From contig CALIYX010000009.1 of NCBI GenBank assembly GCA_938049335.1, forward strand, positions 127,258 to 191,257: a DNA stretch of 64,000 nucleotides, in the 5' to 3' direction. Position 1 is the stretch's first letter; every line of letters begins with the position of its first letter. Positions 8,730-28,073 of this stretch are shown in pieces. Source of the stretch: an uncultured Clostridia bacterium (GTDB lineage: Bacteria > Bacillota > Clostridia > Peptostreptococcales > Anaerovoracaceae). Position numbers and translations under genes: made by a program. The notes beneath the pieces are model-generated. The model saw only the letters and a list, made by a program, of their open reading frames with translations, was not told where the DNA came from and made no database searches.

Positions 8730-8893
8730 ATTAGCTTCCTCCTAAAAATTATAAAAATTTTAACTAACTTAATTTGGCGTATATAATGTAATATACATTC
8801 TCCATATATTATAAATCAGTCTCTATTTTTTTCTATATGCTTGACTGCGTGTATACAAGGATTTAACAAAAAAATAACAAGCGAATTAATTTC

Positions 8894-8919
8894 GGTTCGC
8901 ATAAAATAGTGTGCGAACC
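8894..8919. promoter_or_regulatory. Perfect 8-bp inverted repeat GGTTCGCA-N10-TGCGAACC upstream of kdd (candidate activator binding site)
   Basis: The palindrome is read directly from the sequence. It lies about 165 nt upstream of the kdd start and about 70 nt downstream of the regulator's stop. Confidence 0.3.
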
Positions 8920-8988
8920 ATTTTATAATCATTTTTAATTAACGCTCGTTATTTTCTTGATTAGTAAGTTTAATTATTCCGTGTGTAG

Positions 8989-11055
8989 TTATATGTTGTA
9001 TTTGTTTTTCTTGCGAACGAGCTGAGTCTGACTTATGCCTATCGCCTTTGCTGCCTTACGAGTTGACCCATATTTTTCTATGGCATGCTTGATTATATTC
9101 TTTTCAAAATTCTCGACCATAACCTGCATGTTGACCTCTTCCACTGCCATGCTCTCCTCACCTGAGTTCATTACATTCATATCAAAGACATCTGCGTGAA
9201 GCTCCCTCATGACGTCAAGCAGAGTTATCTCTTCACTTCTTGCTGCAATCATAAGCCTCTGAACTATGTTCTCAAGTTCCCTAGTGTTACCCGGCCACTC
9301 GCACTGTCCGAGGTAGTCAAGAGCATCTGTGTTTATAGCTCTTTTGATAGAAAAAACCTTGCCGTAGGCATCGAGGAAATGCTCGACCAAAACAGGAATA
9401 TCCGAAGGTCTATCCCTCAAAGCTGGAACCCTAATTCTAACAACATTTAGTCTATAATACAGGTCTCTTCTAAATCCACCTGCGTCTATCAAATCCTCTA
9501 GCTCTCTGTTGCTTGCAGAAATGATTCTTACATTGAACTTAATCGGTTCCTGACCTCCGACTCTGAAGAACTCTCCATCCTGTATTACCCTCAAAAGTTT
9601 AGCCTGCATATCAGGTGGCAAATCGGCGATTTCATCGAGGAAAAGCGAGCCGTTGTCCGCAAACTCAAAGAATCCCTTTTTGCTCGTCTCAAGGCCTTTT
9701 GATTCGTCCTTCTCGACTCCGAAAAACTCAGCCTCAAGCATGGATGGTGCAATCGAAGCACAGTTCACTTTGATAAACGGCTGCATCTTTCTGTTGCTGT
9801 TCTTGTGAATTAGATTAGCAACCTTTTCCTTGCCGACACCAGTTTCTCCGGTAATCAAAACATTACAGTCGTACTTCGCAACGGTGAGCACCTCATCGAT
9901 GACAACCGACATCGCATGACTCGTAAATACGAAGTCCTCCATTATGGTTTGGTTTACACCGCTAGCGTTCACGAATCTGCTCTTGGCTCCACCATAGGAA
10001 GAATCATCCTTTAGTCTGATGGTCGTCTCCTCTGCATTCTCTATATATGGTGCTAAGTCTTTTACAATCTCAATATCGAACTTGTCGTAAGCCTCGAGGT
10101 AACCATCTGCGCACCTTATGTCTAGCTGTCTGGATATCGCTTCTGTTATATATAGGGCGATGTTGTAGTTATTTATCAGGTTTGCGAAGATGACCGTTCC
10201 TCCACTCTTTGTTGCAAGAATGTTGATTGTCTCTGCACCCTGAATATCCGCGCAGTTGACCGAAAGATCAAAGGCAGAATCGCCGTCGATATCAGCTATG
10301 CACTCAAGCGGCTTGAGGATATCCACATAGTGGACCTCTGTGAAAACCTTCTTAATAAGCTGGTTGATTCCCTCTCCCTTGAGCACCATATCCGTCTTGT
10401 GATCTAGCAGACAGATAACCTCTGCATCTTCTCTTGCTACCTTGCGTATCGCAAAGCCAAAAAGAAGATTTGATAGAAGGTTATTACCAACAACGAGGAA
10501 CTTTCTCTTGCCGACAGCTGTACTGCTTATTCTGTAGATTGTTCCAGATTCGTTGAAGGTGAACATCAAAAGCTTTAGCGGCAGCCCCTGAGGCCTTCTT
10601 ATTATCGGCACATCATTTGGCAAAATGCAGTAGCCCTCTGCCTCTATCTGTCCGAAGGACTTATCTATGGAAGTAATCTTATCTATATATAGCGGAAGTG
10701 ATGTCAGCGAAGCATTACATATAACCTCGTCACCAACCTTAAATCCCTTGAGATTTTCGTGTTCAGACCCTATCTCACTGACCACGCCGTAAAGCATTCC
10801 GCCTGTGTCTGTAACAGGATTGTGGAGCTTACCCCTTCGGATAACTATGTCCATTATCTTCTGCTTAATCTTTTGATCGTTGTCGTTTGCCTCAAGGCAG
10901 ATTTCCTTAAAGCTGGTTCCCTCTATATGAATTCTCCTGATATCTATACGAATCTCATCAGGAAATATATTGTGGTTATTGTCAAGCTGCCAAGCCGAAG
11001 TTGGAAGCACATGCTTTGGCTCTAGAACTCTATTGATGCCATAATTGTTATTCAT
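8989..11055 (-). CDS. Sigma-54-dependent transcriptional activator with an N-terminal Kdd-paralog (pseudo-dehydrogenase) sensor domain
   Basis: The central AAA+ domain carries GETGVGKE and the sigma-54 interaction region, and the C-terminus has a Fis-type HTH. The N-terminal ~380 aa align colinearly with Kdd encoded in this same window. Examples are GINRVLEPKHVLP against GTHRVISPKGVLP, and KLHNPVTDTGGMLYGVVSEIGSEH against KHKNPWTGSGGMLIGTVEEIGPEW. The NAD glycine motif is degenerate (VVGNNLLSN against IGGGGKSG). Confidence 0.8.
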   Translation of the reverse strand: MNNNYGINRVLEPKHVLPTSAWQLDNNHNIFPDEIRIDIRRIHIEGTSFKEICLEANDNDQKIKQKIMDIVIRRGKLHNPVTDTGGMLYGVVSEIGSEHENLKGFKVGDEVICNASLTSLPLYIDKITSIDKSFGQIEAEGYCILPNDVPIIRRPQGLPLKLLMFTFNESGTIYRISSTAVGKRKFLVVGNNLLSNLLFGFAIRKVAREDAEVICLLDHKTDMVLKGEGINQLIKKVFTEVHYVDILKPLECIADIDGDSAFDLSVNCADIQGAETINILATKSGGTVIFANLINNYNIALYITEAISRQLDIRCADGYLEAYDKFDIEIVKDLAPYIENAEETTIRLKDDSSYGGAKSRFVNASGVNQTIMEDFVFTSHAMSVVIDEVLTVAKYDCNVLITGETGVGKEKVANLIHKNSNRKMQPFIKVNCASIAPSMLEAEFFGVEKDESKGLETSKKGFFEFADNGSLFLDEIADLPPDMQAKLLRVIQDGEFFRVGGQEPIKFNVRIISASNRELEDLIDAGGFRRDLYYRLNVVRIRVPALRDRPSDIPVLVEHFLDAYGKVFSIKRAINTDALDYLGQCEWPGNTRELENIVQRLMIAARSEEITLLDVMRELHADVFDMNVMNSGEESMAVEEVNMQVMVENFEKNIIKHAIEKYGSTRKAAKAIGISQTQLVRKKNKYNI

Positions 11056-11227
11056 TTAATGTTCACTCCATTTTTCGAACCTTTTTCGGTTCATTTTGCT
11101 TATTTCCAATATTAACGCATTAAGTGCCTTTTTGCAACCGTTTTTGTGTGGACAGCCTCGCCGCCTAAAGCTATAATTTATTTATAAAGTATTATCAATG
11201 ACGTATATATGCAAAAGGAGAACAGTA

Positions 11228-11620
11228 ATGGAAGAGAAAATCACTTCAATGATTAGAGTTAGAATGTCAGCAAAGGACGCTCATTACGGCGGAAACCTTG
11301 TAGACGGAGCTCACATGGTACACCTATTTGGCGATGTTGCTACAGAGCTTCTTATCAAGTGTGACGGAGACGAAGGTCTTTTCTGCGCTTACGATAACGT
11401 TGAATTCCTTGCTCCAACATATGCAGGTGACTATATCGAAGCAGTTGGTGAAATCACAAAGATTGGAAACACATCAAGAAAGATGTCATTTGAAGCTCGT
11501 AAGGTAATCGTAGCTAGAACAGACATCAATGCTTCAGCAGCAGACTTCCTTGAGGAGCCAATCGTTGTAGCTAGAGCTACAGGAACTTGCGTAACACCAA
11601 AGGAAAGCAAGAGAAAGTAG
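11228..11620 (+). CDS. kal: 3-aminobutyryl-CoA ammonia-lyase (hotdog fold)
   Basis: A ~130-aa protein with RBS AAAAGGAGAACAGTA-ATG. Its size, the hotdog-like sequence and its position divergent from the kam regulator and operon support the call. Confidence 0.65.
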
Positions 11621-11647
11621 TTAAATACAGATTTCAATAAAAGCTAA

Positions 11648-11671
11648 GGCACCGAACTTCGGTGCCTTTTT
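11648..11671. terminator. Bidirectional rho-independent terminator
   Basis: The hairpin GGCACCG-aactt-CGGTGCC is followed by TTTTT. It lies between the kal stop and the stop of the convergent 218-aa gene. Confidence 0.65.
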
Positions 11672-11738: not shown

Positions 11739-12395
11739 CTATTCTCCAACAGAAACTGCTGTAATACTCACGTAATCCTTGCCTTCTAACGAATATTCTA
11801 TTTCGAAAATGCAAAACCAAATGCTATCGCCTGTGTCTTCAGGGTTATCACTGCCCGTTTCTTCCTCTTCAGCTTGGAAGGTCAGCTTGTCTCTTGGGAT
11901 AAAATCTGAGAGATACATGCTGAGATTTCCTGTTTTGTGGTCAAAGTCATATGCTACCCCAATGTCCTGTCTTTTCTTAGGGGAAACAGGCATCCCATCT
12001 GCTGTATAAAGGTTAATCTTCTGGATCTCGGGTACTAAATTCTTGGAGTCTTTATCTTTAAAGCTTATTTTTATATAGGAATCTTTCTTGTTCTTTATGG
12101 ATACAAAAGGAACATCTCCCTCTACCTTTCCACAGGTAGAGCTTCTGATTTTCATTTGCTTTGATTCCGAGAAGGATGAAAATTTTTCTGCATCGTAGGT
12201 CTTTATGAATGGTGATGCCGTTTCCTTAGAAGTTTCAACGTTTAGCTTGATATCCGTTTCATTTGTGATGCGGTCTTTATCGGCTGTTGGCCTATATGCC
12301 ATATGTAAGACGGCAAAGACTATCGCAGCGATACCGATTAATACGACAAAAGCAATAAGTAATTTTTTCCCAAAAAGCATAGATTTTGTTGACAT
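11739..12395 (-). CDS. Membrane-anchored hypothetical protein (N-terminal TM helix)
   Basis: A 218-aa protein with a hydrophobic N-terminus LLIAFVVLIGIAAIVFAVL. It is the last gene of the T7SS/toxin/immunity array. The T-DKDR stretch weakly resembles the N-terminus of the LRR lipoproteins. Confidence 0.45.
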   Translation of the reverse strand: MSTKSMLFGKKLLIAFVVLIGIAAIVFAVLHMAYRPTADKDRITNETDIKLNVETSKETASPFIKTYDAEKFSSFSESKQMKIRSSTCGKVEGDVPFVSIKNKKDSYIKISFKDKDSKNLVPEIQKINLYTADGMPVSPKKRQDIGVAYDFDHKTGNLSMYLSDFIPRDKLTFQAEEEETGSDNPEDTGDSIWFCIFEIEYSLEGKDYVSITAVSVGE

Positions 12396-12432
12396 AATAA
12401 TACCTCCTACATTTAATAATCACGTATATTAT

Positions 12433-12486
12433 TTAGATTATTACACACAACATCATAACTATAGTCACTGCTAAATACTTCTTCAT
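12433..12486 (-). pseudogene. 5' remnant (signal-peptide region) of a fourth LRR-lipoprotein paralog
   Basis: The reverse complement reads ATGAAGAAGTATTTAGCAGTGACTATAGTTATGATGTTGTGTGTAATAATCTAA. This gives MKKYLAVTIVMMLCVII*, identical in style to the N-termini of the three intact paralogs, and it is preceded by the same ~85-bp upstream repeat. Confidence 0.5.
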
Positions 12487-12571
12487 TTGTTCACCATATT
12501 TATTTTAATTCTATGTTCAACTTGATTTTGCAATTTGCGGAAACAGTACTATTTAAAGTCAATTAATTATG

Positions 12572-13279
12572 CTAATTATCTTTACGATTCTCTTCCCACC
12601 TCTCTATATCTTCTTTGGTCCAATATTTTATCTCGGCATTAGTTTCACCTATTATCTCGGTTCCTTCATCAACTTCGATTCTTCTTAGTTTAGGATTTCT
12701 TGATACATCTAACGCTTTCACATTAGTGTTATACACTTCTACTATTTCAAGGTTAGGATTATTTGATATATCAAGTTCTTCAAGAGGTCCATTAATGTAA
12801 TCAAAATACTTAAGCTTTTTCACTGAATTTAAATCAAGTTCTTTTACAGATGTGTTATATAGACTTATTGTTCTACAATTTTCATTAAAAATAATTTCTC
12901 CCAATCCTTTTGAACTATTGAGAATTACATATTTGAGTTTTTTGTTTTTACTAAAATCTAGTTTTTTTAACTTTGAATTTGCCCCTTCTTCAAATAGCTT
13001 TATTTTAAAAAATTCTAGTTCGGACACATTGCTTACATCTATAGAATTAATTTTTGAATAATATGGACTATAAAGATAGATGTTCCGTATGACATTATCT
13101 CCCACCTTTTCAGGAACAACAATATCAGGACCGGTTTTTTCTATGTCTATCATTGTAAGACGGTTGTCCTTATCTACAAAGAATCTGTCCTTATCCGTAG
13201 TAATTAAATTACAGCTACTTAATGCTACCACTATAACACACAACAGCATAACTATAGTCACAGCTAAATGTTTCTTCAT
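12572..13279 (-). CDS. LRR-repeat lipoprotein, paralog 3 (candidate T7SS immunity protein)
   Basis: The signal peptide carries lipobox ALSSC, and LRR units such as LDISNNPNL and LDVSRNPKL are present. The start was set at the MKKHLAV ATG, which has ATGGAGGAACAA upstream. Confidence 0.6.
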   Translation of the reverse strand: MKKHLAVTIVMLLCVIVVALSSCNLITTDKDRFFVDKDNRLTMIDIEKTGPDIVVPEKVGDNVIRNIYLYSPYYSKINSIDVSNVSELEFFKIKLFEEGANSKLKKLDFSKNKKLKYVILNSSKGLGEIIFNENCRTISLYNTSVKELDLNSVKKLKYFDYINGPLEELDISNNPNLEIVEVYNTNVKALDVSRNPKLRRIEVDEGTEIIGETNAEIKYWTKEDIERWEENRKDN

Positions 13280-13350
13280 TTGTTCCTCCATATTTATTTT
13301 AACTCTATATTCAACTTGATTTTTTATCAGCAAAAATAGTATTATTAAAG

Positions 13351-14187
13351 CTAGTTGTTCTTACGCAGTTCTTCCAATTTCTCTATATCTTCTTTAGTCC
13401 AATATTTTATCTCGGCATTAGTTTCACCTATTATCTCGGTTCCTTCGTCAACTTCAATGAATTTTAACTTGGGGTTATTGGATACATCTAAAACTTTCAG
13501 ATTGGTGTTATATGTTCGCACGGCTCCAAGATTTGGATTATTTGATATATCGAGCTCTTCGAGAGGAATCCCATAAAATTTAATACTTTTGAGTTTTTTC
13601 AACTTCTTTATATCGACAGTCTTTATATTGGCGTTTTTTATCCACACTTGATCAAGATTAGTATTATTGGAAAGATCAATACTTTCAAGCGGTCCGTTCC
13701 AATATGCGAAATCCTCAAGTTTTTTTAATAATTTAAAATCAAGTTCTTTTACCGATGTGTTATATAGATCTATTGACTTACAGTCTTCATTAAAAGTAAT
13801 TTCTTCCAATGCTTTAGCTTTATTGATAGTTACATGTCTAAGCTTTTTATTTTTACTGAAATCAAGCCTTTTGAGCTTTGAATAACTGCCGCCCCCCCAA
13901 AGTTCTAATGTGAAATATTCTAACTCGGATACATTGCTTACATCTATCGAATCAATCTTTGAAAAATATGAGCCTTCAAGATAGATTGTACGTATTACAT
14001 TATCACCAACCTTTTCAGGAACAACAATATCAGGACCGGTTTTTTCTATATCTATCATTGTAAGATAGTTATCCTCATATACAAAGAACCTATCCTTATC
14101 CGTGGTAATTAAATCACAACCGTCTAGTATTATCATTAGGACACAAGACAATATGATTGCAGTCACTGCTAAATATCTACTCTTCAT
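13351..14187 (-). CDS. LRR-repeat lipoprotein, paralog 2
   Basis: A 278-aa protein with lipobox ILDGC, RBS AGAGGAGAAA and a conserved C-terminal block EVDEGTEIIGETNAEIKYWTKEDIE. Confidence 0.6.
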   Translation of the reverse strand: MKSRYLAVTAIILSCVLMIILDGCDLITTDKDRFFVYEDNYLTMIDIEKTGPDIVVPEKVGDNVIRTIYLEGSYFSKIDSIDVSNVSELEYFTLELWGGGSYSKLKRLDFSKNKKLRHVTINKAKALEEITFNEDCKSIDLYNTSVKELDFKLLKKLEDFAYWNGPLESIDLSNNTNLDQVWIKNANIKTVDIKKLKKLKSIKFYGIPLEELDISNNPNLGAVRTYNTNLKVLDVSNNPKLKFIEVDEGTEIIGETNAEIKYWTKEDIEKLEELRKNN

Positions 14188-14272
14188 TTTCTCCTCTATG
14201 TTATTTTAACTCTATATTCAACTTGATTTTGCAATTTGCGGAAACAGTATTACTCAAAGCTAATTAATTTTG

Positions 14273-15109
14273 CTAATTATCTTTACTCTTCTCTTCCAGC
14301 CTCTCTATATCTTCTTTAGTCCAATATTTTATCTCGGCATTAGTTTCACCTATTATCTCGGTTCCTTCGTCAACTTCAATGAATTTTAACTTGGGGTTAT
14401 TGGATACATCTAAAACTTTCAGATTGGTGTTATATGTTCGCACGGCTCTAAGATTGGGATTATTTGATATATCAAGTTCTTCGAGAGGAACCCCATAAAA
14501 TATAATACTTTCGAGTTTTTTCAACATTTTTATATCGACAGTCTTTATATTGGCGTTTTCTATCCACACTTGATCAAGATTAGTATTATTGGAAAGATCA
14601 ATACTTTCAAGAGGACCATTAAAATAATCGAAATATTCGAGTTTTTTCATAGATTTTAAGTCAAGTTCTTTTACCGATGTGTTATATAGACCTATTGCCT
14701 CACAGTCTTCATTAAAAGTAATTTCTTCCAATGCTTTAGTTTTATTGACAGTTACATCTCTAAGCTTTTTATTTTTACTGAAATCAAGCCTTTTGAGTTT
14801 TGAGTAATTACTATCATACAAAAGATTTAACTTGAAAAACTCCAACTCAGATACATTACTTACATCTATCGAATTAATTTTTGAATAATATGGATCATAA
14901 AGATAGATTTTCCGTATGACATTATCACCAACCTTTTCAGGAACAACAATATCAGGACCTGTTTTTTCTATGTCTATCATCTTAAGACGGTTGTCCTCAT
15001 CTACATAGAACCTGTCCTTATCCGTAGTAATTAAATTACAGCTACTTAATGCTACCAATATAACACACGACAGCATAACTATAGTCACCGCTAAATATTT
15101 TTTATTCAT
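14273..15109 (-). CDS. LRR-repeat lipoprotein, paralog 1 (immediately downstream of the LXG toxin)
   Basis: A 278-aa protein with lipobox ALSSC. Its start lies 19 nt after the toxin stop and has a GGAG RBS. Confidence 0.6.
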   Translation of the reverse strand: MNKKYLAVTIVMLSCVILVALSSCNLITTDKDRFYVDEDNRLKMIDIEKTGPDIVVPEKVGDNVIRKIYLYDPYYSKINSIDVSNVSELEFFKLNLLYDSNYSKLKRLDFSKNKKLRDVTVNKTKALEEITFNEDCEAIGLYNTSVKELDLKSMKKLEYFDYFNGPLESIDLSNNTNLDQVWIENANIKTVDIKMLKKLESIIFYGVPLEELDISNNPNLRAVRTYNTNLKVLDVSNNPKLKFIEVDEGTEIIGETNAEIKYWTKEDIERLEEKSKDN

Positions 15110-15128
15110 TTTCTACTCCGTATTACTT

Positions 15129-16835
15129 TTACTCTTTTGTTCTTTTATTATCATATGCAGATTCTAAATTATCTAAATTTGTGCATATTTTTCCTTTGTA
15201 TGTGTATGGGGTTTTGGGTCCCATTTTATCATTAAGTGCATTAAGTTGCCCACTTACACTCTCAGGATTATAGTATACATCTGTCATCTTTATCGGCTTC
15301 ATTTTATAGTATTTGAATACCTTGTTGTAAAAAACGAGTCTATCGGTTGTCTCATTTGTTGGATACATTTTATAAATAAGTTCACCTGTCTTTGTCCCCG
15401 GATTCGCTATCGAAGCTCTTAATTTTAGTTTCTGTGCCATAATACCTATTCCATCGGACTTGATGCCGAAATCTTCATTTTTACTAGGCATATCTACTAT
15501 TTCAATACCCAAATCAGCTAGCCCATATGCAGCTTGCACTCCCACTGGTATCCCCGGGCATGCGACGTTTGCTCCAATCTCCACTGCTGCTTTACATATA
15601 ACTACTGCATAATCCCCTCCATCCTTTCGCATCAAATTCTTTAAATATTCATTCTTTAACGCGCCTACTTTATCCGTTGTTGATGAAATCATTGTGGATA
15701 CTTTAATCGTTGTATACGACTCTCTAAGTTCCATTGGTTTCGCATGATTGTGATCTGCTCTTCTATGTTGTCTATATTCATAATGATAACGACCATCTTT
15801 GAGTGAAATTTTTCCTGTTTCATATATATAATCTATAGTAAGTGCCGTATTCATCATTGTGCATCTTTCGAGAATACTTGAATCTACAAGTTCAGCGCTT
15901 TCCATGCAATATACCCTCGTTGCAACATCCATAGTTGCTGCAAGCTCATATGCACTGTCTTTCAACACCATTACCTCGTTAATTGTCTTCCTATAAGCAT
16001 GCTTAATAACCTTATTCAGGTCATCAGGTTTTGCCTTAAGGATTAGGAATTTTACATATTCTTGGTACGCTTTAAATTCTGCTGGTGTCATTTCAGCAAC
16101 AGATAAATTGGAAAACTTTTCTACGAAATCTTCGTTAAGCCTTCCCTTGGTCAGCATCTCTTTATTGTATTTGTCAAACAACTGCTTTTCCATATCAGCA
16201 GCCCATACAGGTAACTCTTGGAACCTAAATCCGTTTTTTCCCGATCCTTTAAGTTCTGCAATGCACCTACCTATCTTTGTCATAGCAGCTTTTTCCGCTA
16301 AAAACAGTTCATTTGTTTTTCTTTCTATCTCATCAATCTTTTCTAACTTACTATTCATTATAGCGATAATCTTTTCTGCCCTTGTCTTTATATAAGCATT
16401 TCTATTAATCTGCAATCCGCAATAACTAGCAATAATAGGACAAAGTTCAAGTTGCATCTGCTTATGCCTATATTCTTCAATTCTCTTAGCACATCTTGCC
16501 TTTATTCCTTCTTGCTCATATATAATGCTGTTAATGATGTCTTCATTGAGCTTCTCATCTCCTACACTCATTATCATGGTATCGCAAGCCTTGGATATGT
16601 TCTCAGCAGTAATTATAAACATATCCATCAGTGTTTCATAGCAATATAGTTGGTTTAATACCGCCTTCCCCGTCATGCCCTTTAGTTTAGGCGATCCAAA
16701 GGAATATCTGGCAATGGTAGACTTTGCTTTCTTGTAATAAGAACTATATTCATCGACATTACTTTTTATTTCGTTCATGCTCGTTCGAATTGAATGTGGA
16801 TTAACAATTCTTCCCATTGTCATTTTCTCCTTCAC
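15129..16835 (-). CDS. LXG-family polymorphic toxin (T7SSb substrate) with an unrecognised C-terminal toxin domain
   Basis: A 568-aa protein with an N-terminal helical region carrying an L-x-G motif (KLKGMTGKAV). It sits directly downstream of essC and two small helical proteins. The listed start is GTG; the true start is probably an ATG 12-18 nt in, which has an AAGGAG upstream. Confidence 0.55.
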   Translation of the reverse strand: MKEKMTMGRIVNPHSIRTSMNEIKSNVDEYSSYYKKAKSTIARYSFGSPKLKGMTGKAVLNQLYCYETLMDMFIITAENISKACDTMIMSVGDEKLNEDIINSIIYEQEGIKARCAKRIEEYRHKQMQLELCPIIASYCGLQINRNAYIKTRAEKIIAIMNSKLEKIDEIERKTNELFLAEKAAMTKIGRCIAELKGSGKNGFRFQELPVWAADMEKQLFDKYNKEMLTKGRLNEDFVEKFSNLSVAEMTPAEFKAYQEYVKFLILKAKPDDLNKVIKHAYRKTINEVMVLKDSAYELAATMDVATRVYCMESAELVDSSILERCTMMNTALTIDYIYETGKISLKDGRYHYEYRQHRRADHNHAKPMELRESYTTIKVSTMISSTTDKVGALKNEYLKNLMRKDGGDYAVVICKAAVEIGANVACPGIPVGVQAAYGLADLGIEIVDMPSKNEDFGIKSDGIGIMAQKLKLRASIANPGTKTGELIYKMYPTNETTDRLVFYNKVFKYYKMKPIKMTDVYYNPESVSGQLNALNDKMGPKTPYTYKGKICTNLDNLESAYDNKRTKE

Positions 16836-17142
16836 TTTCCCCTATTTTCTTACGCAGTTGTTTTATTTCACCGCTTAGCGAATCCATTAACTTTTCATGA
16901 CCTTGTTTTTCGACAATAAGTAGTTCACGCTGCTCACTTAGGATACCTCTTAAGCTATTATCAGAATACAAATAATCAATTTGTCCCTCTACTTCGTAAA
17001 TATCCTTTCTTCTTTCAAATTCTTCCTCAAAATAGTCCGCATCCAATTTTTTATGAATACTTTTCAAAATTTCCAAAATTTGATTGTCATACTTATCTCT
17101 ATAACCCATCATTTTTCTCCATTTAATCTGTCCACGAATCAA
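16801..17142 (-). CDS. Small helical T7SS-associated protein (LXG-associated targeting factor-like)
   Basis: A ~100-113-aa highly charged protein lying between the 91-aa gene and the LXG toxin. Confidence 0.4.
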   Translation of the reverse strand: MIRGQIKWRKMMGYRDKYDNQILEILKSIHKKLDADYFEEEFERRKDIYEVEGQIDYLYSDNSLRGILSEQRELLIVEKQGHEKLMDSLSGEIKQLRKKIGESEGENDNGKNC

Positions 17143-17144
17143 GA

Positions 17145-17420
17145 TTACTTCTTGCTGAAAAGCTGTGCTACTTTATCATCAAAGTCATTAAATGCATTAT
17201 ATGAACGTTCAATTTTCTCTGTATCATTTTTTAACGCCATATTCATATCTTTTATCACATTAACGCAAACATCATAGCACTCCGTGCTGTTCGTATTTCC
17301 TGCTATCGTAGTTTCCGTATCTTTTTCGGCAAGCTCCTTTATATCCATTTTTGCGGAAGAAACATCATTTTTGAGGTTTATAATTAATGCGCTTTCAATT
17401 ACTATTTCTTTACTATCCAT
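17145..17420 (-). CDS. Small helical T7SS-associated protein (WXG100/Lap-like)
   Basis: A 91-aa protein with RBS AAAGGAGAGCGT-ATG, located immediately after the essC stop. Confidence 0.4.
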   Translation of the reverse strand: MDSKEIVIESALIINLKNDVSSAKMDIKELAEKDTETTIAGNTNSTECYDVCVNVIKDMNMALKNDTEKIERSYNAFNDFDDKVAQLFSKK

Positions 17421-17430
17421 ACGCTCTCCT

Positions 17431-20400
17431 TTACATAAGCGGAATTTTAACCATTGTTACAACACCGTTTTCATACATATATGCCATTCCACGTTCTTTT
17501 CCCAGTTCGTTTTTCCTGATATTGAAAATTTGTTGGGATTGTGGATCTCCTAACACAACCCCGCTTTGCGAATTATCTCTCAACGCCTTTGATACTACGT
17601 CAAATCCCTTGAGTTTATTCGATGCTGAGGATGCGAATATCTGTATTTGCGTTACAATTCCTCGTCTAAGAAGCATACCATACTTAGTTCCATCATTTCC
17701 AAGTGCTTCAACAAAAGCATCTACATCTTCAATTATAAGTGATAATGGCTCAAGAGACATATAAAAATCTTTCATCTTTAAATCACCGGTATATTTGTCA
17801 TATGATTCTTCTCTGATTTTTATTAATTCTTCAAATTCTGATATAAAATCTTCAATTCCACCTGAAGGATCCGCATATATTACATTCTTATGTTTCTCAT
17901 AATCATCCATGTCTCTTGTTCTTGAATCAAATAAGAAAATCCTGCCGTCACCCAGCTGTGATAGAATAACTCTTATGGTATTCGTCTTACCTGATTGAGG
18001 AACTCCCAAAATAAGATGTATCTGAGATTTATAATCGAGATAGTACGGCATTACTTTCTCACTGTCGAGTCCTATTGCAATTCTCCTATCCCCATCTTTC
18101 TTGTCATATATAATATTTTCAAGTCGTACCTCATCAGGCAAAATTGAGATACGTTTTGCTTCTATACCATCATTGGACTCCTTGATTATCTCTATCAGCC
18201 TTTGCAACTCAATAGTATATTCTATATTGCTATTGCACTCACAAGGCATATATTCCTGCATCAGATATACATTATCTCTGCTCACAAGCGCTCTTCCTTT
18301 AATATCAGATAATTTGTAATCACTTCGTCCTATAAGGGAAGTCACTTCACTTGAGTCAGACATGAAATTGCAAATCCTCGCACCAAAATTATTCAGCACG
18401 GCATACTTCATCGCATTTGCTCTTGTTGCAGTTACAAGTGTATATATTCCTAAGCCAACCCCATCTCTCGTAAGCTGCGTAAAGAAATTCTCAAGCTCAT
18501 AATCAATCTCCTTGACTACATCATAATTATCAACTATTACAAGTATTGCAGGAAGCGTTTCGTAAAGTGCAGCATTGTACATTTCAAGAGATGTTGCATT
18601 AGCCCTCGCGAACTTCCGCTTTCTTTCCGATATTTCAGCTGTCAGCAAATTTCGCAACTTCCTGAATTTCTCTTCATCATCAAATGAAATGTAATCGGCT
18701 ACCTGTGGAAGTTCTTTAAGCCTGAATAAAGCTGAGTTACCGAAATCGATTATATACATATTGAGTGCTGCCGGAGAGTTATTCGATGCAAGCGACAAAA
18801 TTGCATTAGTTGCAGCAGTTGACTTTCCGACCTTTGATGTCCCGAATATCGCCATATTTCCTGCTTTTGAAAAATCATGGAAATATATCTCCTGTAGCTG
18901 CCTGTCAGGCATGTCGATTATTCCGACGGCATAAGACATATCTGGCACTTCACAGGTAACACCTTTACGAATTTCCGGATTTACTATCTGCTCAGGCAAC
19001 GGAGGAAACCACGGCTTAGCGACAGCCTTGCACGGTGTATCCTCATATATATTCTTAATATGCTTTACAACTGCATCAAGCTGTGTCAATTTATTAGTGT
19101 CATTTGACTCACCGGCACTCAGATCCTCATTTATGAGCATCCCCTGACCGAGCTCATTCAGTACAAAAATTCTATCATCGACTTCGTTCTTCTCCGCGTC
19201 CCTGCTGTATGCACCTCCACTATATGCTGACTGGAAAAGTTCATATATCTCATTGTTTCCTACCTGAAGATATGCGCGACCCGGCTGAGTGATATTGGCC
19301 GCATCACCACTGCGTAAAAGTTCTCGGCTGTCAGCCTCGTTCTGTACCTTTAGACAGAGCTTAAATCTGGAGTTACTCCAGATCTGATCGTCCACTATGC
19401 CTGACGGCTTTTGCGTAGCAAGAATTAGGTGCACTCCGAGACTTCGGCCAACTCTTGCTGTCGATACAAGTTCTGCCATAAATTCCGGTTGCTCCTTCTT
19501 TAACTCCGCAAACTCATCGGATATTATAAATAAATGAGGCATCGGTTCTGTTGCCTGCCCTGCCCTAAATTTTTCCGAATATTTGTTTATGCTGTTCACA
19601 CCGTTTTGATTGAAGACATCCTGGCGCCTCTTAAGCTCACTCTTGATCGAAGCAAGAGCTCTCATACTTTCTGTTCCGTCAAGATTTGTAATCGTTCCAA
19701 GAAGATGTGGCAGTTCCTTGAACAAATTCGCCATTCCACCGCCTTTGTAGTCTATCAGAAGAAACCCTACATCGTACGGATGAAAATTACAAGCAAGGGA
19801 TAGTATATATGACTGCAATATCTCTGACTTTCCCGAACCTGTCGTTCCTGCGACAAGACCATGAGGGCCGTGAGCTTTTTCATGAAGATCAAGGTTTACT
19901 ATGTCGCCTTTACCTCGGACTCCAAGCGGAACAGATAGTGACTTGTGTGTTGCATTTCTATTCCACAGCTCCTTGATATGAATTTCTTCTGGTGATTTCA
20001 CTCCGTATAGGTCAAGAAAGAATATGTTCTCCGGAATCTGCGTAGTTACTCCCTTATTATGAATAATCGGGTTTAAGCGTCTTGCAAATGTCTCGTAGTT
20101 AATCTCGTCAACGTCAAATTTGAGTTTCTTGTTTGCAAGATTTCCCTCAGTCATGAGGATACTTCCCTCATCTTTTGCTTCAATATTAAGAACCGTCTTT
20201 ACGTTCTCAGGTAAATTGTTCTCAATTTGGGTCATATATATCAGTGAAAATCCCAGTTCAACACCCTCCTCATTAAGGTGCTCCATTATATTGTGATTTA
20301 TTATAAGTTTAGACTCATCAATCAAGAACACATAATGGGGAATGTATCTTGTTTCTTTTTTCGACTCATCTCGTGTTATGCTCCTTGCCTTTAATTCTCT

Positions 20401-21699
20401 TGTTATATGACCGAGAACCTGATCACGTTGATTCTCGCCGGAAATTACGCCAGATACATTTATGTCCTTGATATCGGTATGTGGAAGCCAACGCATCCAT
20501 TCATATTCATCTTTACTGTCCTCACCGATTATCGGTACAATGCAAACATCGTGATAACTATGAAAAAAAGCTATTTGAGTTACAATATTCCTTAATCTTG
20601 CCCTGCAGTAATCTGGTCTGCCTACTATCCCGAGATGAGATTTCTTTAGATCAACAACATAAGGGATATCCTTTACAATTTTAAAATTTCCGTATACTGC
20701 AAGCATCTCTTTATATAGATCATCACCTGCTCTTCCATATACTTCATCATCACATTCGATCTTAAAGCTTGGGGCACAAGGCGCAGTTCCAATGGATATA
20801 CTTAGAAAATCATCATCATTGAAGTTTCTCTCATATATCCTGTTAGTATAGTGGCTGACCTCATCCTCGATTTCTTTGAGTGAAAGGTTTTGATATCTCC
20901 TCGCCTCCTTAAATTCTTCCGTTCTGTCATAAAGTTCCTTGCGTTTAGCAAGCAGGTATTCCTTATATGATGCTGTGTTTTCTCTGTTTTCAGCGATTTT
21001 GTTTTTCTTGTCATCAAAATACGTAATGGTTGTGACTATCATCGTTGCCCCGGTTGCAGCAACCATAACAAGCATGAATAATCCTCGGTTCATGAACATA
21101 CTCATAAGCACTGTGGCGATTATCATAACACAGCTGGGGAGTATCCTTTTTACAAGCTCTCCTTTTCTCTGTTTTTCACGTTTATCGGGAGTCTTAATTT
21201 GAACCTTTGCATATGGCTCGGTCTTGACGATTCTCGGTGAACGTTTATATATAGGATATTCATCAAACCTATCCGGTTTTTTTATATATGATACAAAATC
21301 GGTTTCAAATGTATTACCACATATTCCACATATTTCTAACCATCCGTCATGATAAATTATTTCGGTTGTGCCGATGAGGATCTTGTCACCAGATACTAAT
21401 TCAGCATTAACCTTCTTTATCCCATTAATAAAAATATAATCATCGGATTTAAGATTTTTACCAATAATTATTACATCTGGGGTCTTTGACATTAATCTGA
21501 GCATGCATGAATTATCATTGCCAATTTTAATTATTTCTCTTCCTAAGGTAGAAACCGCTTCATATCTTGTAGGTAGAAATAGCTGCGTCCTTCCCTCGGC
21601 ATCTATTTTATAAGAGAAAACATCGACACTATCTTCATTTGAATGAATTAGATGTTCTGTATATTTATCATTTTCAAATAGTAAAATTCTATAGTCCAT
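17431..21699 (-). CDS. essC: T7SSb ATPase EssC (FtsK/SpoIIIE family, N-terminal FHA, three P-loop domains)
   Basis: A 1422-aa protein with an N-terminal FHA-like region and a TM segment (~residues 190-230). It has three Walker A sites: GTTGSGKSE, GTSKVGKST and GVPQSGKTN. Confidence 0.85.
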   Translation of the reverse strand: MDYRILLFENDKYTEHLIHSNEDSVDVFSYKIDAEGRTQLFLPTRYEAVSTLGREIIKIGNDNSCMLRLMSKTPDVIIIGKNLKSDDYIFINGIKKVNAELVSGDKILIGTTEIIYHDGWLEICGICGNTFETDFVSYIKKPDRFDEYPIYKRSPRIVKTEPYAKVQIKTPDKREKQRKGELVKRILPSCVMIIATVLMSMFMNRGLFMLVMVAATGATMIVTTITYFDDKKNKIAENRENTASYKEYLLAKRKELYDRTEEFKEARRYQNLSLKEIEDEVSHYTNRIYERNFNDDDFLSISIGTAPCAPSFKIECDDEVYGRAGDDLYKEMLAVYGNFKIVKDIPYVVDLKKSHLGIVGRPDYCRARLRNIVTQIAFFHSYHDVCIVPIIGEDSKDEYEWMRWLPHTDIKDINVSGVISGENQRDQVLGHITRELKARSITRDESKKETRYIPHYVFLIDESKLIINHNIMEHLNEEGVELGFSLIYMTQIENNLPENVKTVLNIEAKDEGSILMTEGNLANKKLKFDVDEINYETFARRLNPIIHNKGVTTQIPENIFFLDLYGVKSPEEIHIKELWNRNATHKSLSVPLGVRGKGDIVNLDLHEKAHGPHGLVAGTTGSGKSEILQSYILSLACNFHPYDVGFLLIDYKGGGMANLFKELPHLLGTITNLDGTESMRALASIKSELKRRQDVFNQNGVNSINKYSEKFRAGQATEPMPHLFIISDEFAELKKEQPEFMAELVSTARVGRSLGVHLILATQKPSGIVDDQIWSNSRFKLCLKVQNEADSRELLRSGDAANITQPGRAYLQVGNNEIYELFQSAYSGGAYSRDAEKNEVDDRIFVLNELGQGMLINEDLSAGESNDTNKLTQLDAVVKHIKNIYEDTPCKAVAKPWFPPLPEQIVNPEIRKGVTCEVPDMSYAVGIIDMPDRQLQEIYFHDFSKAGNMAIFGTSKVGKSTAATNAILSLASNNSPAALNMYIIDFGNSALFRLKELPQVADYISFDDEEKFRKLRNLLTAEISERKRKFARANATSLEMYNAALYETLPAILVIVDNYDVVKEIDYELENFFTQLTRDGVGLGIYTLVTATRANAMKYAVLNNFGARICNFMSDSSEVTSLIGRSDYKLSDIKGRALVSRDNVYLMQEYMPCECNSNIEYTIELQRLIEIIKESNDGIEAKRISILPDEVRLENIIYDKKDGDRRIAIGLDSEKVMPYYLDYKSQIHLILGVPQSGKTNTIRVILSQLGDGRIFLFDSRTRDMDDYEKHKNVIYADPSGGIEDFISEFEELIKIREESYDKYTGDLKMKDFYMSLEPLSLIIEDVDAFVEALGNDGTKYGMLLRRGIVTQIQIFASSASNKLKGFDVVSKALRDNSQSGVVLGDPQSQQIFNIRKNELGKERGMAYMYENGVVTMVKIPLM

Positions 21700-21708
21700 T
21701 GTTCCTTC

Positions 21709-22992
21709 CTATTTAAGTAACTTCGGTTCATCATCACTATTATTTTGAGGATGTGCATCTTCATTCGAAGCTGATTTTTCGTTAGATTTCCTCTCTATAT
21801 CATTATCTTTTTTAATTGAATTACTATCATTTGTTAAGCCATACCGTTCTTCATTTACTGACTTAAGTAGTTTTTTTATTTTCTCGTCCAATGCATTTAA
21901 TGTTTCTGTTTTCTTTGAACCTGTCATTGATGCATCCTTGCTCACCTGTGCTTTTCTCTGAGCAAGTGCAAAGATACGATGCTCATTATCGCCAAATTTT
22001 TGAGCGTAGTCATCCGCAGTAATATAGTCATGTCTTCCAATCATGACCCAATAGTTTAGATAATCTTTATTTGTTCTGTATTGGTCAATTGCCTTCAGCA
22101 CATTCTCTTTCTGAGTTGACGTAAGTCCACTACTTTTTACTGCAGATACTGCTGCCATATATCTCGTAGAATTTGACATGTCAGTCTCATTGAGAGATTT
22201 CAAAGATTTTCCTACAGAACCGTAATCATTTGCGAAATACTGCTCAGTAGCTGTCATTATTCTATCATTTATTTTCCCTTTTATAAAATGTTCATAGCCA
22301 AAAAGAAAAATGGAAATAACCATAATTATGCACACTATGGGTAGTAATCTTTTATTTCTTATTATGTCATTTTTTTTAATCACGACAAAATTCTCGTTCT
22401 CATATTCACGTTCATTCTCTATGGCTTCGAGAATTATCTCACGCACTTCGGATGCAGATTTTGCCATAAACACTTTGTATAATATATCGCTTTGTAAAAA
22501 TAAATCTGCACCACCTCTTAAAAAGTCTTCATACGAATGTTCAATGTCAAGTGTTGTACCTATCAATGCTTTATACTCATCAAGAAAATTATTATCCTTG
22601 ATAGAGAATGTTCGATCTATAACATTCGGTCTAAAAGCCGCATCAATAAGAACGTTATTTGGATTTAAAGAAAACGAATATATAGGCGTGAGTTCTTCAA
22701 GCTCACCAGCTGCCAAAATAAAACCATATTTATCAATAAGACGCGCATTCCGTACACTGTCAAAAGTCTGAAAGTTTTCTGCGTCATACGTGAATATATA
22801 GTAGTCGTCGTCCGATGATATATTGCAATTAACTAGTCTTTTAGTTTTTATTACAAGTTGCTTTATTCCATCATCACCAACGGGATAATTAGTTTTTAAA
22901 CACCTTATTTCAATTTTCTTTCTTTTTATCTTTTCATCCGAATTTATTTTTGAAGATTTTGAGACTTTACTTGTCTTTTTTCTATTCTTCAT
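21709..22992 (-). CDS. essB: T7SSb membrane protein EssB-like (pseudokinase N-domain, single TM)
   Basis: A 427-aa protein with the central TM LLPIVCIIMVISIFLFGY. Its position between esaB and essC supports the call. Confidence 0.6.
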   Translation of the reverse strand: MKNRKKTSKVSKSSKINSDEKIKRKKIEIRCLKTNYPVGDDGIKQLVIKTKRLVNCNISSDDDYYIFTYDAENFQTFDSVRNARLIDKYGFILAAGELEELTPIYSFSLNPNNVLIDAAFRPNVIDRTFSIKDNNFLDEYKALIGTTLDIEHSYEDFLRGGADLFLQSDILYKVFMAKSASEVREIILEAIENEREYENENFVVIKKNDIIRNKRLLPIVCIIMVISIFLFGYEHFIKGKINDRIMTATEQYFANDYGSVGKSLKSLNETDMSNSTRYMAAVSAVKSSGLTSTQKENVLKAIDQYRTNKDYLNYWVMIGRHDYITADDYAQKFGDNEHRIFALAQRKAQVSKDASMTGSKKTETLNALDEKIKKLLKSVNEERYGLTNDSNSIKKDNDIERKSNEKSASNEDAHPQNNSDDEPKLLK

Positions 22993-23222
22993 ACTTCACC
23001 TATCTCCGTAATTTTATCTCCTGAAAAAATACCTTCTTCTTTGAATGTATTAAAAGTGCTTATAACACGCTCCTGTACAGTTGATCGCACAAACGACTTT
23101 GTTTTATATGGCAGATATCCATTTGTATTTAGTTCATTTATAACATCTGCTATAGTTCTATTTTCATCTGCTATCACACTTACTCTAATATCGCCTTGTT
23201 CTAAGGTTATGGTTATTCTCAT
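22989..23222 (-). CDS. esaB: Ubiquitin-like T7SS protein EsaB/YukD
   Basis: A ~77-aa protein starting MRITITLEQGDIRVSVIADENRTIADVINEL, which is YukD-like. The ORF-track start is 27 nt further upstream. Confidence 0.7.
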   Translation of the reverse strand: MRITITLEQGDIRVSVIADENRTIADVINELNTNGYLPYKTKSFVRSTVQERVISTFNTFKEEGIFSGDKITEIGEV

Positions 23223-23724
23223 ATTTTTTCCTGTTCCATCTGATAACAACTGTTGACATAATACATGTCAAGATTATACATAATGCAATTTTTTTATATT
23301 TTTGGATAAAAAGATTATTTATTTCTTTGTTACTTTCGACTTCTACTCCTGTATCTACCTTATCGAATAAAGAAAACGATTTCAATGTATTGTCGACTTC
23401 TTTGTCATAATTTATTATTCCTTTCCATTCGCCGTTAAACAAGCCTGAAATAATTTGAACTTGCTCTTTTTCCTTGTTACTTTTGATTGTATGCATACTC
23501 ACCATACTATCATTTGTAAATACCGCAAATCCATATTCGGCAAGTACATTTCCTTCCTTTTCGTTTTCTCCACTTATACTTTCTGGATTTATTATTAATT
23601 TGTTATCATTTGCATATATGCATGTAGGCATATATGAAATGAATATTAAAAAAATCAACACGATAAATAAAGCGATTTTGCATATTTTGCTTTTACTCCG
23701 TAATCTATAAATTACAATCATCAT
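23185..23724 (-). CDS. EssA-like small membrane protein (N-terminal signal/TM plus C-terminal TM)
   Basis: The hydrophobic N-terminus IALFIVLIFLIFISYMPTCIYA and the C-terminal TM IALCIILTCIMSTVVI give an EssA-like topology. It lies between esxA and esaB. The start was set at an internal ATG that has AGGAA upstream. Confidence 0.4.
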   Translation of the reverse strand: MMIVIYRLRSKSKICKIALFIVLIFLIFISYMPTCIYANDNKLIINPESISGENEKEGNVLAEYGFAVFTNDSMVSMHTIKSNKEKEQVQIISGLFNGEWKGIINYDKEVDNTLKSFSLFDKVDTGVEVESNKEINNLFIQKYKKIALCIILTCIMSTVVIRWNRKKYENNHNLRTRRY

Positions 23725-23780
23725 ATTCCTTTTATAACAAAAATTCTTCGACATCCAAAGACGCCGAAGAATAACTAATC

Positions 23781-24080
23781 TTATTTGAACTGTCCTGCGA
23801 TATTTGAATCTAGCTCCTGTGCAGCAGCTAAAGTTTGCTCTATCTGCCTTGCAATTGTTTCTACGAGTTCCCTTGTCTGATTAAGACCTGGTTTAAGACC
23901 AGCAAACTGCTCTACATATGCATTAGCAGCAGCACCTTCCCAACTATCTGGTAAACTGTTTATTACGTTCTGGATCTCACCTATTAGGTTTTCAAGATTA
24001 TTACCGTAATTTCTTAGGTTTAATGACGCTTGTGATAGTCCTTCAGCGTTAAGTCTGATTTGTGACATATTCCCCTCCAT
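23781..24080 (-). CDS. esxA: WXG100 secreted protein EsxA
   Basis: A 99-aa protein with a W-x-G motif (DSWEGAAA) and the helix-turn-helix length typical of WXG100. Confidence 0.8.
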   Translation of the reverse strand: MEGNMSQIRLNAEGLSQASLNLRNYGNNLENLIGEIQNVINSLPDSWEGAAANAYVEQFAGLKPGLNQTRELVETIARQIEQTLAAAQELDSNIAGQFK

Positions 24081-24088
24081 AAACTTAG

Positions 24089-25705
24089 TTAATTAACTGT
24101 ATTTTTTTCAACCAGCTTCACGGGCTGGATTAAAAACTTCATTACATCACTGCTGACTCTTCCGTTTACCTTTGCATTTGATAGCATCCCCTCAAATGCA
24201 CTCAGCCTTGATCTTGTATCTTTACTATTTGTCTCAACAGTATTTATAAAAGCAGTAACAGATTCACCAAGTGTATCGTGGTCTTTCAAATTAGTTTCGT
24301 TCAGAATTTTAACAGTATCAGATACGAACTTACTATTCAAAGAATATGCCTCATCGAGTTTTGTTCGGTTTTCTTCTTGTATTTTATTAAATCTGCTTGA
24401 TGTATCTTGTGCATCTTTAATGAATGCGTTTCTCACATTATCAATTTTGCTCTTATATGTGTTTGACCCCACCGACTCATCCATAGCTGATTTAATAAAT
24501 TCATTAGGTGCTAATCGTGAGGATTGTAGTCTAAGTTTTTCTTGATATCCCGCAACAGCATCTTGGATTGAATTCTCAATTGATTTTATATCCTCTTTAG
24601 TAGGTAGAACCTCATCAAATGATATTGTAGGTGATTTCCCTTTGATTTTTTCACTAATTGCATTTAAAGCTTCTTTTTTGACTTTAAGATCATTCTTAGC
24701 ATTGTCTATATTATGCAACTGTATATCTGTTGGATTCTGACTAATTAAATACTCATCCACCATTTCTTGATATTTTGTAACGGATGCTTCATAATCATCT
24801 ACACTCTTTTGATATACCGATAAATCATTTAGATATATATCATATCTAGTATTGAAATCAGCTATAGAATCAGCATATTTGGTAATCAGTCTTAACATTT
24901 CTTTGACCTTGGATACGCTATCATCTACTGCCTTAATATCAATATCTATATTAATTTCATCGCTTATACTTTTATGTGCGGATGCATATGCCGTCTTAAA
25001 TAAGTCATCAATTTCGTCTGCATAATTATTCCCACTATTTTGGTATGCATCCGTGTTTTGCTCTTTAAATTCCGGCATTTCCATTGGAATTGTTGGTTCC
25101 TTAAACTCAACTCTATAATTTCCTTCTGCAACTTTTCTTGCTGCAGCTAGGTTATTCCCATCATTATTGAAAACTTCTTTTATATTGTACTGACCAAGTT
25201 CAACCTCATCCATTAAGGCATTAATATATGCATATGAGAGTTTATTATTGAATGAATTATACACATCATAGATTTGGAAATATATATCATCAAATTTCTC
25301 TTTTTTACTAATACTATACTCAAGATTTATTGTCTGAGGATTTTTATAGTTAATGCTCAGTATACTTGAAGACAGATTTCCAGGAAAGACTATAATACCA
25401 GCATAGGTTCCATTTTTAAGGCCTTCTTCTGCGTCTATACTTGAAACTAGCTTAAAAGTTTTTTCGTCGAGAGTTTTAACAAATTCCTCAGAATAGTTTA
25501 TTATTTTACCTGAATATTCCACTCCAACATCTTGATTAACAATTGCTATTGTTTGTTTTCTTGATGATGAATCTTCTACATTAGATTTTTTTGTAACTTT
25601 ATTATTAGAACAACCTGCAAAAGCTACTACAAAAACTATTATCATTGTTAATAATATGACTAAAACTTTCTTATTTATCGTATTATCCTGAAGCATATTA
25701 TCCAT
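24089..25705 (-). CDS. EsaA/YhgE-Pip N-terminal-domain protein (short form lacking the C-terminal polytopic membrane domain)
   Basis: It has an N-terminal TM with a Cys (FAGCSNN), then the hallmark IAIVNQDVG motif of the YhgE/Pip/EsaA family, and a long coiled, charged ectodomain. At 538 aa it is much shorter than the ~1000 aa of canonical EsaA. Confidence 0.55.
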   Translation of the reverse strand: MDNMLQDNTINKKVLVILLTMIIVFVVAFAGCSNNKVTKKSNVEDSSSRKQTIAIVNQDVGVEYSGKIINYSEEFVKTLDEKTFKLVSSIDAEEGLKNGTYAGIIVFPGNLSSSILSINYKNPQTINLEYSISKKEKFDDIYFQIYDVYNSFNNKLSYAYINALMDEVELGQYNIKEVFNNDGNNLAAARKVAEGNYRVEFKEPTIPMEMPEFKEQNTDAYQNSGNNYADEIDDLFKTAYASAHKSISDEINIDIDIKAVDDSVSKVKEMLRLITKYADSIADFNTRYDIYLNDLSVYQKSVDDYEASVTKYQEMVDEYLISQNPTDIQLHNIDNAKNDLKVKKEALNAISEKIKGKSPTISFDEVLPTKEDIKSIENSIQDAVAGYQEKLRLQSSRLAPNEFIKSAMDESVGSNTYKSKIDNVRNAFIKDAQDTSSRFNKIQEENRTKLDEAYSLNSKFVSDTVKILNETNLKDHDTLGESVTAFINTVETNSKDTRSRLSAFEGMLSNAKVNGRVSSDVMKFLIQPVKLVEKNTVN

Positions 25706-28072: not shown

Positions 28073-28073
28073 A

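Follow-up and report, generated by a model that had tools for sequence, protein, structure and literature searches.

Tandem leucine-rich repeat lipoproteins behind an LXG-type toxin gene: putative immunity proteins in a type VIIb secretion locus of an uncultured Clostridia bacterium

Introduction

In LXG toxin loci, the immunity gene usually adjoins the end of the toxin gene that encodes the toxin domain (PMC10730906). TelC, an LXG toxin of Streptococcus, is a lipid II phosphatase, and its immunity protein TipC is extracellular and membrane-bound (PMC9484751, PMC6193138). Recombination among tandem paralogs has been described for tipC and esaG, and a known hallmark is the presence of orphan immunity genes in strains without the toxin (PMC9484751). 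Proteins of the TilA type were once assigned a role in host interaction, and their genes occur in immunity islands as well (PMC10730906); the survey that described the leucine-rich repeat (LRR) immunity candidates named Imm-LRR contained a single lipobox-anchored immunity family, Imm65 (PMC3482391). Here we describe a tandem array of three LRR lipoprotein genes (A, B and C) and a gene remnant (the stub) that lie directly behind an LXG-type toxin gene in a cluster for a type VIIb secretion system (T7SSb). The array belongs to a stretch of 64,000 nucleotides (contig CALIYX010000009.1 of an uncultured Clostridia bacterium), hereafter the window; its elements are all on the minus strand unless stated, and coordinates are those of the whole stretch. 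An earlier interpretation of these letters, here called the sequence-only reading, had taken the array for a set of surface-exposed immunity proteins, and comparative evidence (the T7SSb/LXG context, gene adjacency, covariation and orphan segments) makes this the best-supported explanation.

Results

An LRR lipoprotein gene directly follows the toxin gene across strains and genera

The T7SSb cluster of the window is complete and stands directly upstream of the toxin gene and of the LRR array, which forms the end of the cluster. Profile matches identified EssC (FtsK_SpoIIIE, E 2.9e-59), EssB, EsxA (WXG100, above cut-off) and the N-terminus of EsaA. The first ~200 residues of the toxin match the Pfam LXG profile PF04740 over 189 of its 202 positions with an E value of 2.1e-5 and 24.9 bits, under the gathering score of 26.5, and one toxin allele (P0290) has a precomputed LXG match. 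As the sequence-only reading had it, three paralogs stand directly downstream of the toxin in the gene order of the minus strand, and the gap between the toxin stop and the first copy measures 19 nt.

The toxin is polymorphic at one end. A query with the full-length protein retrieved 192 relatives, and among the best 120 of these 192 identity over the N-terminal 320 residues is 88-96%, and the C-terminal 240 residues (from about residue 320) form 6-8 classes with 46-85% identity between them. The C-terminus alone, used as a query, returned 4 proteins and missed the species' own toxins through a limit of the word index. One metagenomic protein of 174 aa (P0274) combines 110 unrelated N-terminal residues with the C-terminal 65 of the window-type toxin (95% identical), and is either a recombinant or an assembly chimera.

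We then compared the window with more than 40 related loci (labelled L, with protein variants labelled P). Judging from the source names on near-identical proteins, the window itself comes from [Eubacterium] sulci, an oral bacterium, or from a very close relative. Among the related contigs, 34 toxin genes have a complete 3' end, and wherever the contig continues past them the next gene encodes an LRR lipoprotein, at a distance of -38 to +28 nt. No gene other than this LRR gene invariably comes after the toxin, over the 6-8 C-terminal classes and two Mogibacterium species. In five loci (L040, L043, L044, L045 and L051), two toxin-LRR modules stand in series or three LRR genes lie upstream of a further toxin gene. 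Orthologous toxins that share 41-44% identity with that of the window occur in Mogibacterium diversum and M. pumilum at another chromosomal site, which adjoins dnaX, and two or three LRR lipoproteins of ~50% identity stand behind them. The same Mogibacterium clusters encode a second LXG protein, which has a different C-terminus and is followed by unrelated membrane-anchored proteins of ~373 aa, indicating that the LRR genes track this toxin domain rather than the secretion system as such.

Some further features of these related loci were recorded on the way. The second toxin gene of L040 has no partner-protein gene of its own in its 361-bp spacer. Behind the second LXG protein of Mogibacterium stand one to two paralogs of 364-374 aa (L001:3256-7109 and 11787-12911; L002:5754-8447), and M. 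diversum has one more copy past the LRR array; they are probably another immunity family with an orphan copy. The M. pumilum cluster (L002:2304-5742 and 8460-10672) contains a reverse transcriptase open reading frame of group II intron type and an essC fragment, and at the syntenic site of this species two partner-protein genes are directly followed by two LRR genes, with no toxin gene between them.

The first LRR protein covaries with the toxin class, and its variable segment recurs in orphan arrays

Toxin class and the variable segment of the first LRR protein (residues 84-143) were compared in 17 distinct toxin/first-LRR pairs using a Mantel permutation test. Ten types of this segment were found, each occurring with a single toxin class; segments are 84% identical within a toxin class and 64% identical between classes (Mantel r 0.545, permutation p 2e-4). 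A itself is 99.6% identical in six loci with the same toxin class, five of which were retrieved by an exact match to the A variant and one (L038) by the toxin query.

Many E. sulci contigs have no T7SS or toxin gene between the pseudouridine synthase and thioesterase genes, yet carry one to three LRR genes there. This T7SS-less haplotype (a term that refers to this locus only) is common (L015-L024, all E. sulci metagenome contigs), and the block it misses corresponds to positions 15110-25885 of the window. P0044, a variant from T7SS-less contigs, was found in 85 index blocks, and the window-type A (P0002) in 39. In these strains a 166-bp upstream region of distinct sequence comes after the pseudouridine synthase gene, the signal peptide of the first LRR gene differs (VKRRHLLIT...), and homology to toxin-bearing loci resumes exactly at the lipobox. 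A toxin remnant was looked for at this junction and none was found; the junction is compatible with either a deletion or an insertion of the T7SS as the origin of the difference. The variable segments of the LRR proteins of T7SS-less strains are 97-100% identical to those of first-position LRR proteins from toxin-bearing strains. According to the sequence-only reading, homologs commonly found without any T7SS or toxin neighbour would refute immunity. Such homologs do exist in many E. sulci strains, but they do not refute it, since orphan immunity genes are the known hallmark cited above and since these orphan segments are nearly the same as the first-position ones. A different rearrangement is seen in L014 (6676-7981), where a deletion has fused the first half of essB with the second half of the toxin gene, so that essC and the partner genes are gone and the LRR array is retained.

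Downstream copies in the window also resemble first-position proteins of other strains. Residues 84-143 of B are 92% identical to the first-position LRR protein of the commonest toxin class (L026 type), the next best match being 78%, and the variable segment of C is 97% identical to the first-position LRR protein of toxin class L025, with a next best match of 68%.

Variation is concentrated on the predicted concave face of a putatively surface-anchored LRR solenoid

A matches the Pfam families LRR_4 (28.3 bits, cut-off 27) and LRR_1 (24.2 bits, cut-off 20.6), and its AlphaFold2 model (mean predicted local distance difference test score, pLDDT, 87.7) is a beta-solenoid with long and short strands alternating every 21 residues and a single terminal helix. 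In a Foldseek search of the Protein Data Bank (PDB), the top 50 matches listed for A are all LRR proteins. A PDB sequence search placed internalin J (InlJ) closest among solved sequences (E 1.8e-14), the other matches being designed LRR proteins, and in the alignment the long strands of A correspond to the LxxLxCxxN segments of InlJ.

At its N-terminus each paralog has a brief basic region, then a markedly hydrophobic core (Kyte-Doolittle 2.5-2.8 for A and C) and a cysteine in a lipobox-like context, whose motif is LDGC in B (residues 20-24) and LSSC in the other two. The lipobox consensus is L-[AS]-[GAS]-C. The aspartate at position -2 of the B lipobox is unusual for lipoproteins; in related variants the motif is LGGC or LSSC. 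The three paralogs are putative lipid-anchored surface lipoproteins. They are small (~255 aa when mature) and have no wall-anchor or stalk regions. The family is also narrow: among 1.8 billion representatives we found one full-length cluster, a few fragments and one Mogibacterium cluster. Giant LRR proteins among the 50%-identity representatives were rejected as members because their similarity is generic (~30% identity), and the genome-scan loci L003-L008 were likewise set aside as generic LRR matches.

Variation within the family was computed over 122 distinct members. Long strands have a mean column entropy of 0.64, short strands one of 0.20 and the remaining columns one of 0.35 (permutation p 1e-4). 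At outward-facing positions, defined as x2, x3, x5 and x7 of the canonical LxxLxLxxN register, the ratio of nonsynonymous to synonymous substitution (dN/dS) is 0.61, compared with 0.19-0.21 elsewhere, and only 1 of 300 random codon sets reached as high a value. These values suggest either relaxed constraint or diversifying selection on the predicted binding face.

The array bears marks of recombination among its copies

The three paralogs are 72-81% identical in pairwise comparisons. An alignment confirmed, for DNA and protein alike, that conserved ends enclose a variable middle: DNA identity among A, B and C is 78-88% over the 5' 294 nt, 70-72% in the middle and 72-92% over the 3' 300 nt, and the most variable protein segment is formed by residues 84-143, with 62-77% identity between the window copies. 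C is shorter by exactly 42 aa, which corresponds to two 21-residue repeats lost in frame. Read from the ATG at 13279, which lies opposite the starts of A and B in the alignment and is preceded by GGAGG at a distance of 5 nt, C has 235 aa, and the TTG at 13333 would give 253 aa; the sizes of 253-278 aa proposed for the paralogs on the letters alone therefore stand for A and B (278 aa each), but for C only if the TTG start is taken. Similarly, a common upstream sequence of ~85 bp had been ascribed to every copy: it precedes B (85 nt), C (71 nt) and the stub (85 nt), but not A, which has only the 19-nt spacer. A promoter scan of these conserved intergenic units scored no better than shuffled sequence.

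The stub, located at 12433-12486 as the sequence-only reading had placed it, reads MKKYLAVTIVMMLCVII* and so consists of 17 sense codons plus a stop rather than of 18 codons. Its junction upstream of the gene for a 218-aa protein is conserved in six other strains (L009-L012, L014 and L020), showing that the stub is not recent in this genome. Segments of a single copy have different nearest relatives, which points to mosaic recombination among the tandem paralogs.

Surroundings of the array

The features of the locus are collected in Table 1. No Pfam or NCBIfam family matched the small helical protein whose gene overlaps the toxin start, and it is a probable second targeting partner. The GC content of the region from ~11.7 to 25.7 kb is mostly 31-36% (with a single 2-kb bin at 42%), and that of the flanks is 41-45%.

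The 218-aa protein encoded at the end of the operon also matched no Pfam or NCBIfam family. Its gene is missing from L012, L015-L019 and L027-L032, and only some strains have one, so that it is not the obligate partner of the toxin. Where it is present, it is always preceded by the same LRR-gene stub, and in other strains the array ends instead with a divergent LRR gene (279-280 aa, ~54% identical). On the minus strand of the window, no terminator-like site other than the hairpin beyond the gene for the 218-aa protein lies downstream of the toxin gene.

The variable locus is bounded on the right by genes of lysine-fermentation type that all strains keep: a diaminohexanoate dehydrogenase-like gene and a sigma-54 activator that shares its N-terminal domain, at 7668-11055 on the minus strand, and a 4HBT thioesterase gene at 11198-11620 on the plus strand. 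Just past the T7SS block lies a radical S-adenosylmethionine (SAM) maturase gene (26699-28260, minus strand), upstream of which a SCIFF (six-cysteines-in-forty-five) peptide gene was called in related loci.

Table 1. Features of the toxin-LRR locus in the window, in order of position
Feature	Position	Strand	Basis or remark
Hairpin terminator, common to the convergent thioesterase gene	11646..11668	.	Terminator scan
218-aa protein at the operon end	11739..12395	-	One strongly hydrophobic N-terminal segment (membrane anchor)
Stub, 5' remnant of a further LRR gene (signal-peptide part)	12433..12486	-	Repeat family D4
Intergenic unit upstream of the stub, 85 nt	12487..12571	-	Upstream-region alignment
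LRR lipoprotein C, third position, 235 aa from ATG	12572..13279	-	Without two repeats, in frame
Intergenic unit upstream of C, 71 nt (version shorter by 14 nt)	13280..13350	-	Upstream-region alignment
LRR lipoprotein B, second position, 278 aa	13351..14187	-	81% identical to A
Intergenic unit upstream of B, 85 nt, with ribosome-binding site	14188..14272	-	Upstream-region alignment
LRR lipoprotein A, first position, 278 aa	14273..15109	-	Start 19 nt past the toxin stop
LXG-type polymorphic toxin, 568 aa from GTG	15129..16835	-	Other strains: 562-564 aa, internal ATGs
Second small helical protein, 102-113 aa, overlapping the toxin start	16801..17142	-	Position kept in all toxin-bearing loci
Small helical T7SS partner protein, 91 aa	17145..17420	-	TIGR04197, 38.2 bits (cut-off 26)
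T7SSb core: EssC, EssB, EsaB-like, EssA-like, EsxA, shortened EsaA-like	17431..25705	-	Profile matches

Discussion

Considering the gene order, the covariation and the orphan copies described above, we think it likely that the LRR lipoproteins are immunity proteins against the adjacent polymorphic LXG toxin exported by the T7SSb. The mechanism that we propose runs as follows. A, the copy translated next after the toxin, would neutralise the toxin of its own strain on the outer side of the membrane, where its lipoprotein anchor implies that neutralisation takes place, and would do so by binding the C-terminal domain of the toxin through its variable concave beta-sheet. B and C would be orphan immunity genes directed against the toxin alleles of conspecific neighbours. 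The array may be reshuffled by recombination through the conserved ends of its genes and the conserved unit between them, giving rise to new repeat combinations, changed copy numbers and remnants such as the stub. Binding of the LRR proteins to the toxin, and the protection that would result, are what we infer from this comparative evidence, and it is from the lipoprotein signal peptides of the LRR proteins alone that we infer an action of the toxin outside the cytoplasm. As for what the toxin does, its most hydrophobic 19-residue window has a Kyte-Doolittle value of 1.1-1.7 in full-length C-terminal domains and is not consistently membrane-like; a pore-forming toxin would be a guess.

Several observations weigh against this interpretation. 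In oral bacteria, LRR lipoproteins of small size frequently serve as adhesins. The C-terminal domain of the toxin gave no match in Pfam, NCBIfam or the PDB, whether by sequence search or with profiles built from four alleles, and its target and even its toxic nature are deduced from the context in which it is encoded; the AlphaFold2 model of the toxin, made from a four-sequence alignment, is poor (pLDDT 42). The covariation could come in part from the physical linkage of neighbouring DNA and not from co-adaptation, although the N-terminus of the toxin, which is equally close, is nearly constant, arguing for a cassette over linkage alone. Moreover, some toxin sub-classes that are 83-85% identical are accompanied by first LRR proteins that are only 60-72% identical in the variable segment. 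Many downstream copies have no close match among the first-position LRR proteins sampled, a comparison on which the partial sampling of toxin classes bears. The dN/dS at the variable positions is raised but remains below 1, no value above 1 having been found there, and the assignment of these positions to the concave face is derived from the repeat register and the alignment to InlJ, and not from inspected coordinates.

Alternatively, the LRR lipoproteins may be variable adhesins or antigens of internalin or BspA type, which diversify under host immunity or ligand variation and merely share a hypervariable site with the T7SS island. That their LRR domains are closest to InlJ, that they carry surface lipoprotein signals and that one to three copies stand behind a separate upstream region where the site has no T7SS would all suit such proteins, and variation on a ligand-binding face combined with mosaic recombination would be expected of antigenic variation too. 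We nevertheless consider this unlikely, since it leaves unexplained why an LRR gene comes directly after every toxin allele, including those of the extra modules, why the pairing is kept at the other Mogibacterium site, where another LXG protein has different neighbours, and why the type of the first LRR protein follows the toxin class. It would also leave the locus with no other consistently present candidate immunity gene. In addition, the proteins are small and have neither wall anchor nor stalk. The match to the NCBIfam InlJ model NF033187 reaches 34.1 bits where the cut-off is 1700, through the repeats only, and A, which ends in a short helix past the last repeat, does not classify as a full-length internalin.

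It is still less probable, in our view, that the LRR lipoproteins are accessory factors of the toxin, acting as a surface dock that presents it or recognising target cells for contact-dependent delivery. The tight genetic coupling and the covariation with the C-terminal domain of the toxin would fit such a role, as would the surface location and the general use of LRRs as protein-binding modules, but one to three copies are kept where T7SS and toxin are missing at the site, and non-cognate copies that match the first-position LRR proteins of other strains fit defence and not delivery. The targeting partners known for T7SSb are, besides, small helical proteins, and these are already encoded upstream of the toxin. 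Finally, we regard it as very improbable that the array is made of decaying duplicates without function whose covariation results from hitch-hiking with the toxin since, despite the stub, the frameshifted LRR copies of some strains (L009, L014, L015 and L045) and the two-repeat deletion in C, most copies are intact, dN/dS outside the variable strands is ~0.2 at a dS between copies of ~0.45-0.5, which denotes purifying selection, core and cap residues are invariant over the 122 variants, and the deletion in C is in frame, with a 235-aa allele recurring in another strain (L040).

Returning to immunity, a wider picture can be drawn, to which we give somewhat less than even credence: the LRR arrays may be recombination-shuffled surface receptors that neutralise the allelic forms of an undescribed LXG toxin family outside the membrane, a counterpart in logic of LRR-based variable immune receptors, kept even where the weapon has been lost and carrying a readable allele specificity in their repeat blocks (residues 84-143). 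If the LRR proteins do confer immunity, the LRR solenoid would join the folds used for type VII immunity, and the array would be a third independent tandem-lipoprotein array guarding the cell surface, after TipC and TilA. It would then also flag a new toxin domain that necessarily acts outside the cytoplasmic membrane, and would help to explain strain competition in a common oral anaerobe in which T7SS-bearing strains and strains T7SS-less at this site coexist, both with arrays. The LRR architecture makes specificity easy to read, as the variable residues occupy defined repeat positions, and the natural set, with at least 6-8 toxin classes and 10 types of first LRR protein, could become a model for the evolution of toxin-antidote specificity.

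Among known systems, TelC-TipC resembles the locus of the window in its layout, with an LXG toxin gene followed by tandem paralogs (up to 15 for tipC), and TipC shares with the LRR lipoproteins a probable lipoprotein signal, conserved 5' and 3' blocks around a variable middle and recombination among paralogs (PMC9484751, PMC6193138). Divergence in TipC is concentrated on the concave face of the beta-sheet that binds the toxin (PMC9484751, PMC6193138), and in the window it lies on the predicted concave strands. The folds differ, TipC (PDB 6DHX) having a seven-stranded sheet and three helices to which the LRR solenoid shows no likeness in sequence or fold. In the PDB sequence searches, the LRR proteins of the window matched only LRR proteins and the toxin matched nothing, TelC included if its deposited structure is in the searched copy.

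TslA-TilA of Staphylococcus aureus is similar in that its immunity proteins are extracellular lipoproteins encoded in tandem arrays of variable copy number (PMC10730906). TilA belongs to DUF576, for which the LRR proteins gave no match at E values up to 0.1, and TslA, a T7SS lipase with reversed domain order and a known phospholipase domain, is unlike the toxin of the window. InlJ of Listeria monocytogenes (PDB 3BZ5) has the same 21-residue repeats (LxxLxCxxNxLxxLDVSxNxx), but it is a large wall-anchored virulence adhesin whose identity with the window proteins, ~21%, is confined to the repeats.

The Imm-LRR candidates of Zhang et al. (2012) stand, like the array, beside polymorphic toxins or in polyimmunity loci, including in Firmicutes (PMC3482391). 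They are defined by context, as LRR proteins in a conserved polymorphic-toxin neighbourhood, and the array of the window falls under this definition, a likeness of context rather than of shown descent. Imm-LRR proteins were noted beside type V secretion system toxins and described as not widely used (PMC3482391), while the window has lipoproteins in a homogeneous array next to a T7SS LXG toxin. Thus, the view that an LRR fold would be unusual for T7SS immunity needs qualification, since LRR immunity proteins had already been predicted as Imm-LRR (PMC3482391), but it holds in so far as the literature searched gave no report of an LRR immunity protein for T7SS or LXG toxins. Altogether, these comparisons suggest that the locus applies a known strategy, that of tandem surface-lipoprotein antidotes, to an unusual fold, the LRR solenoid.

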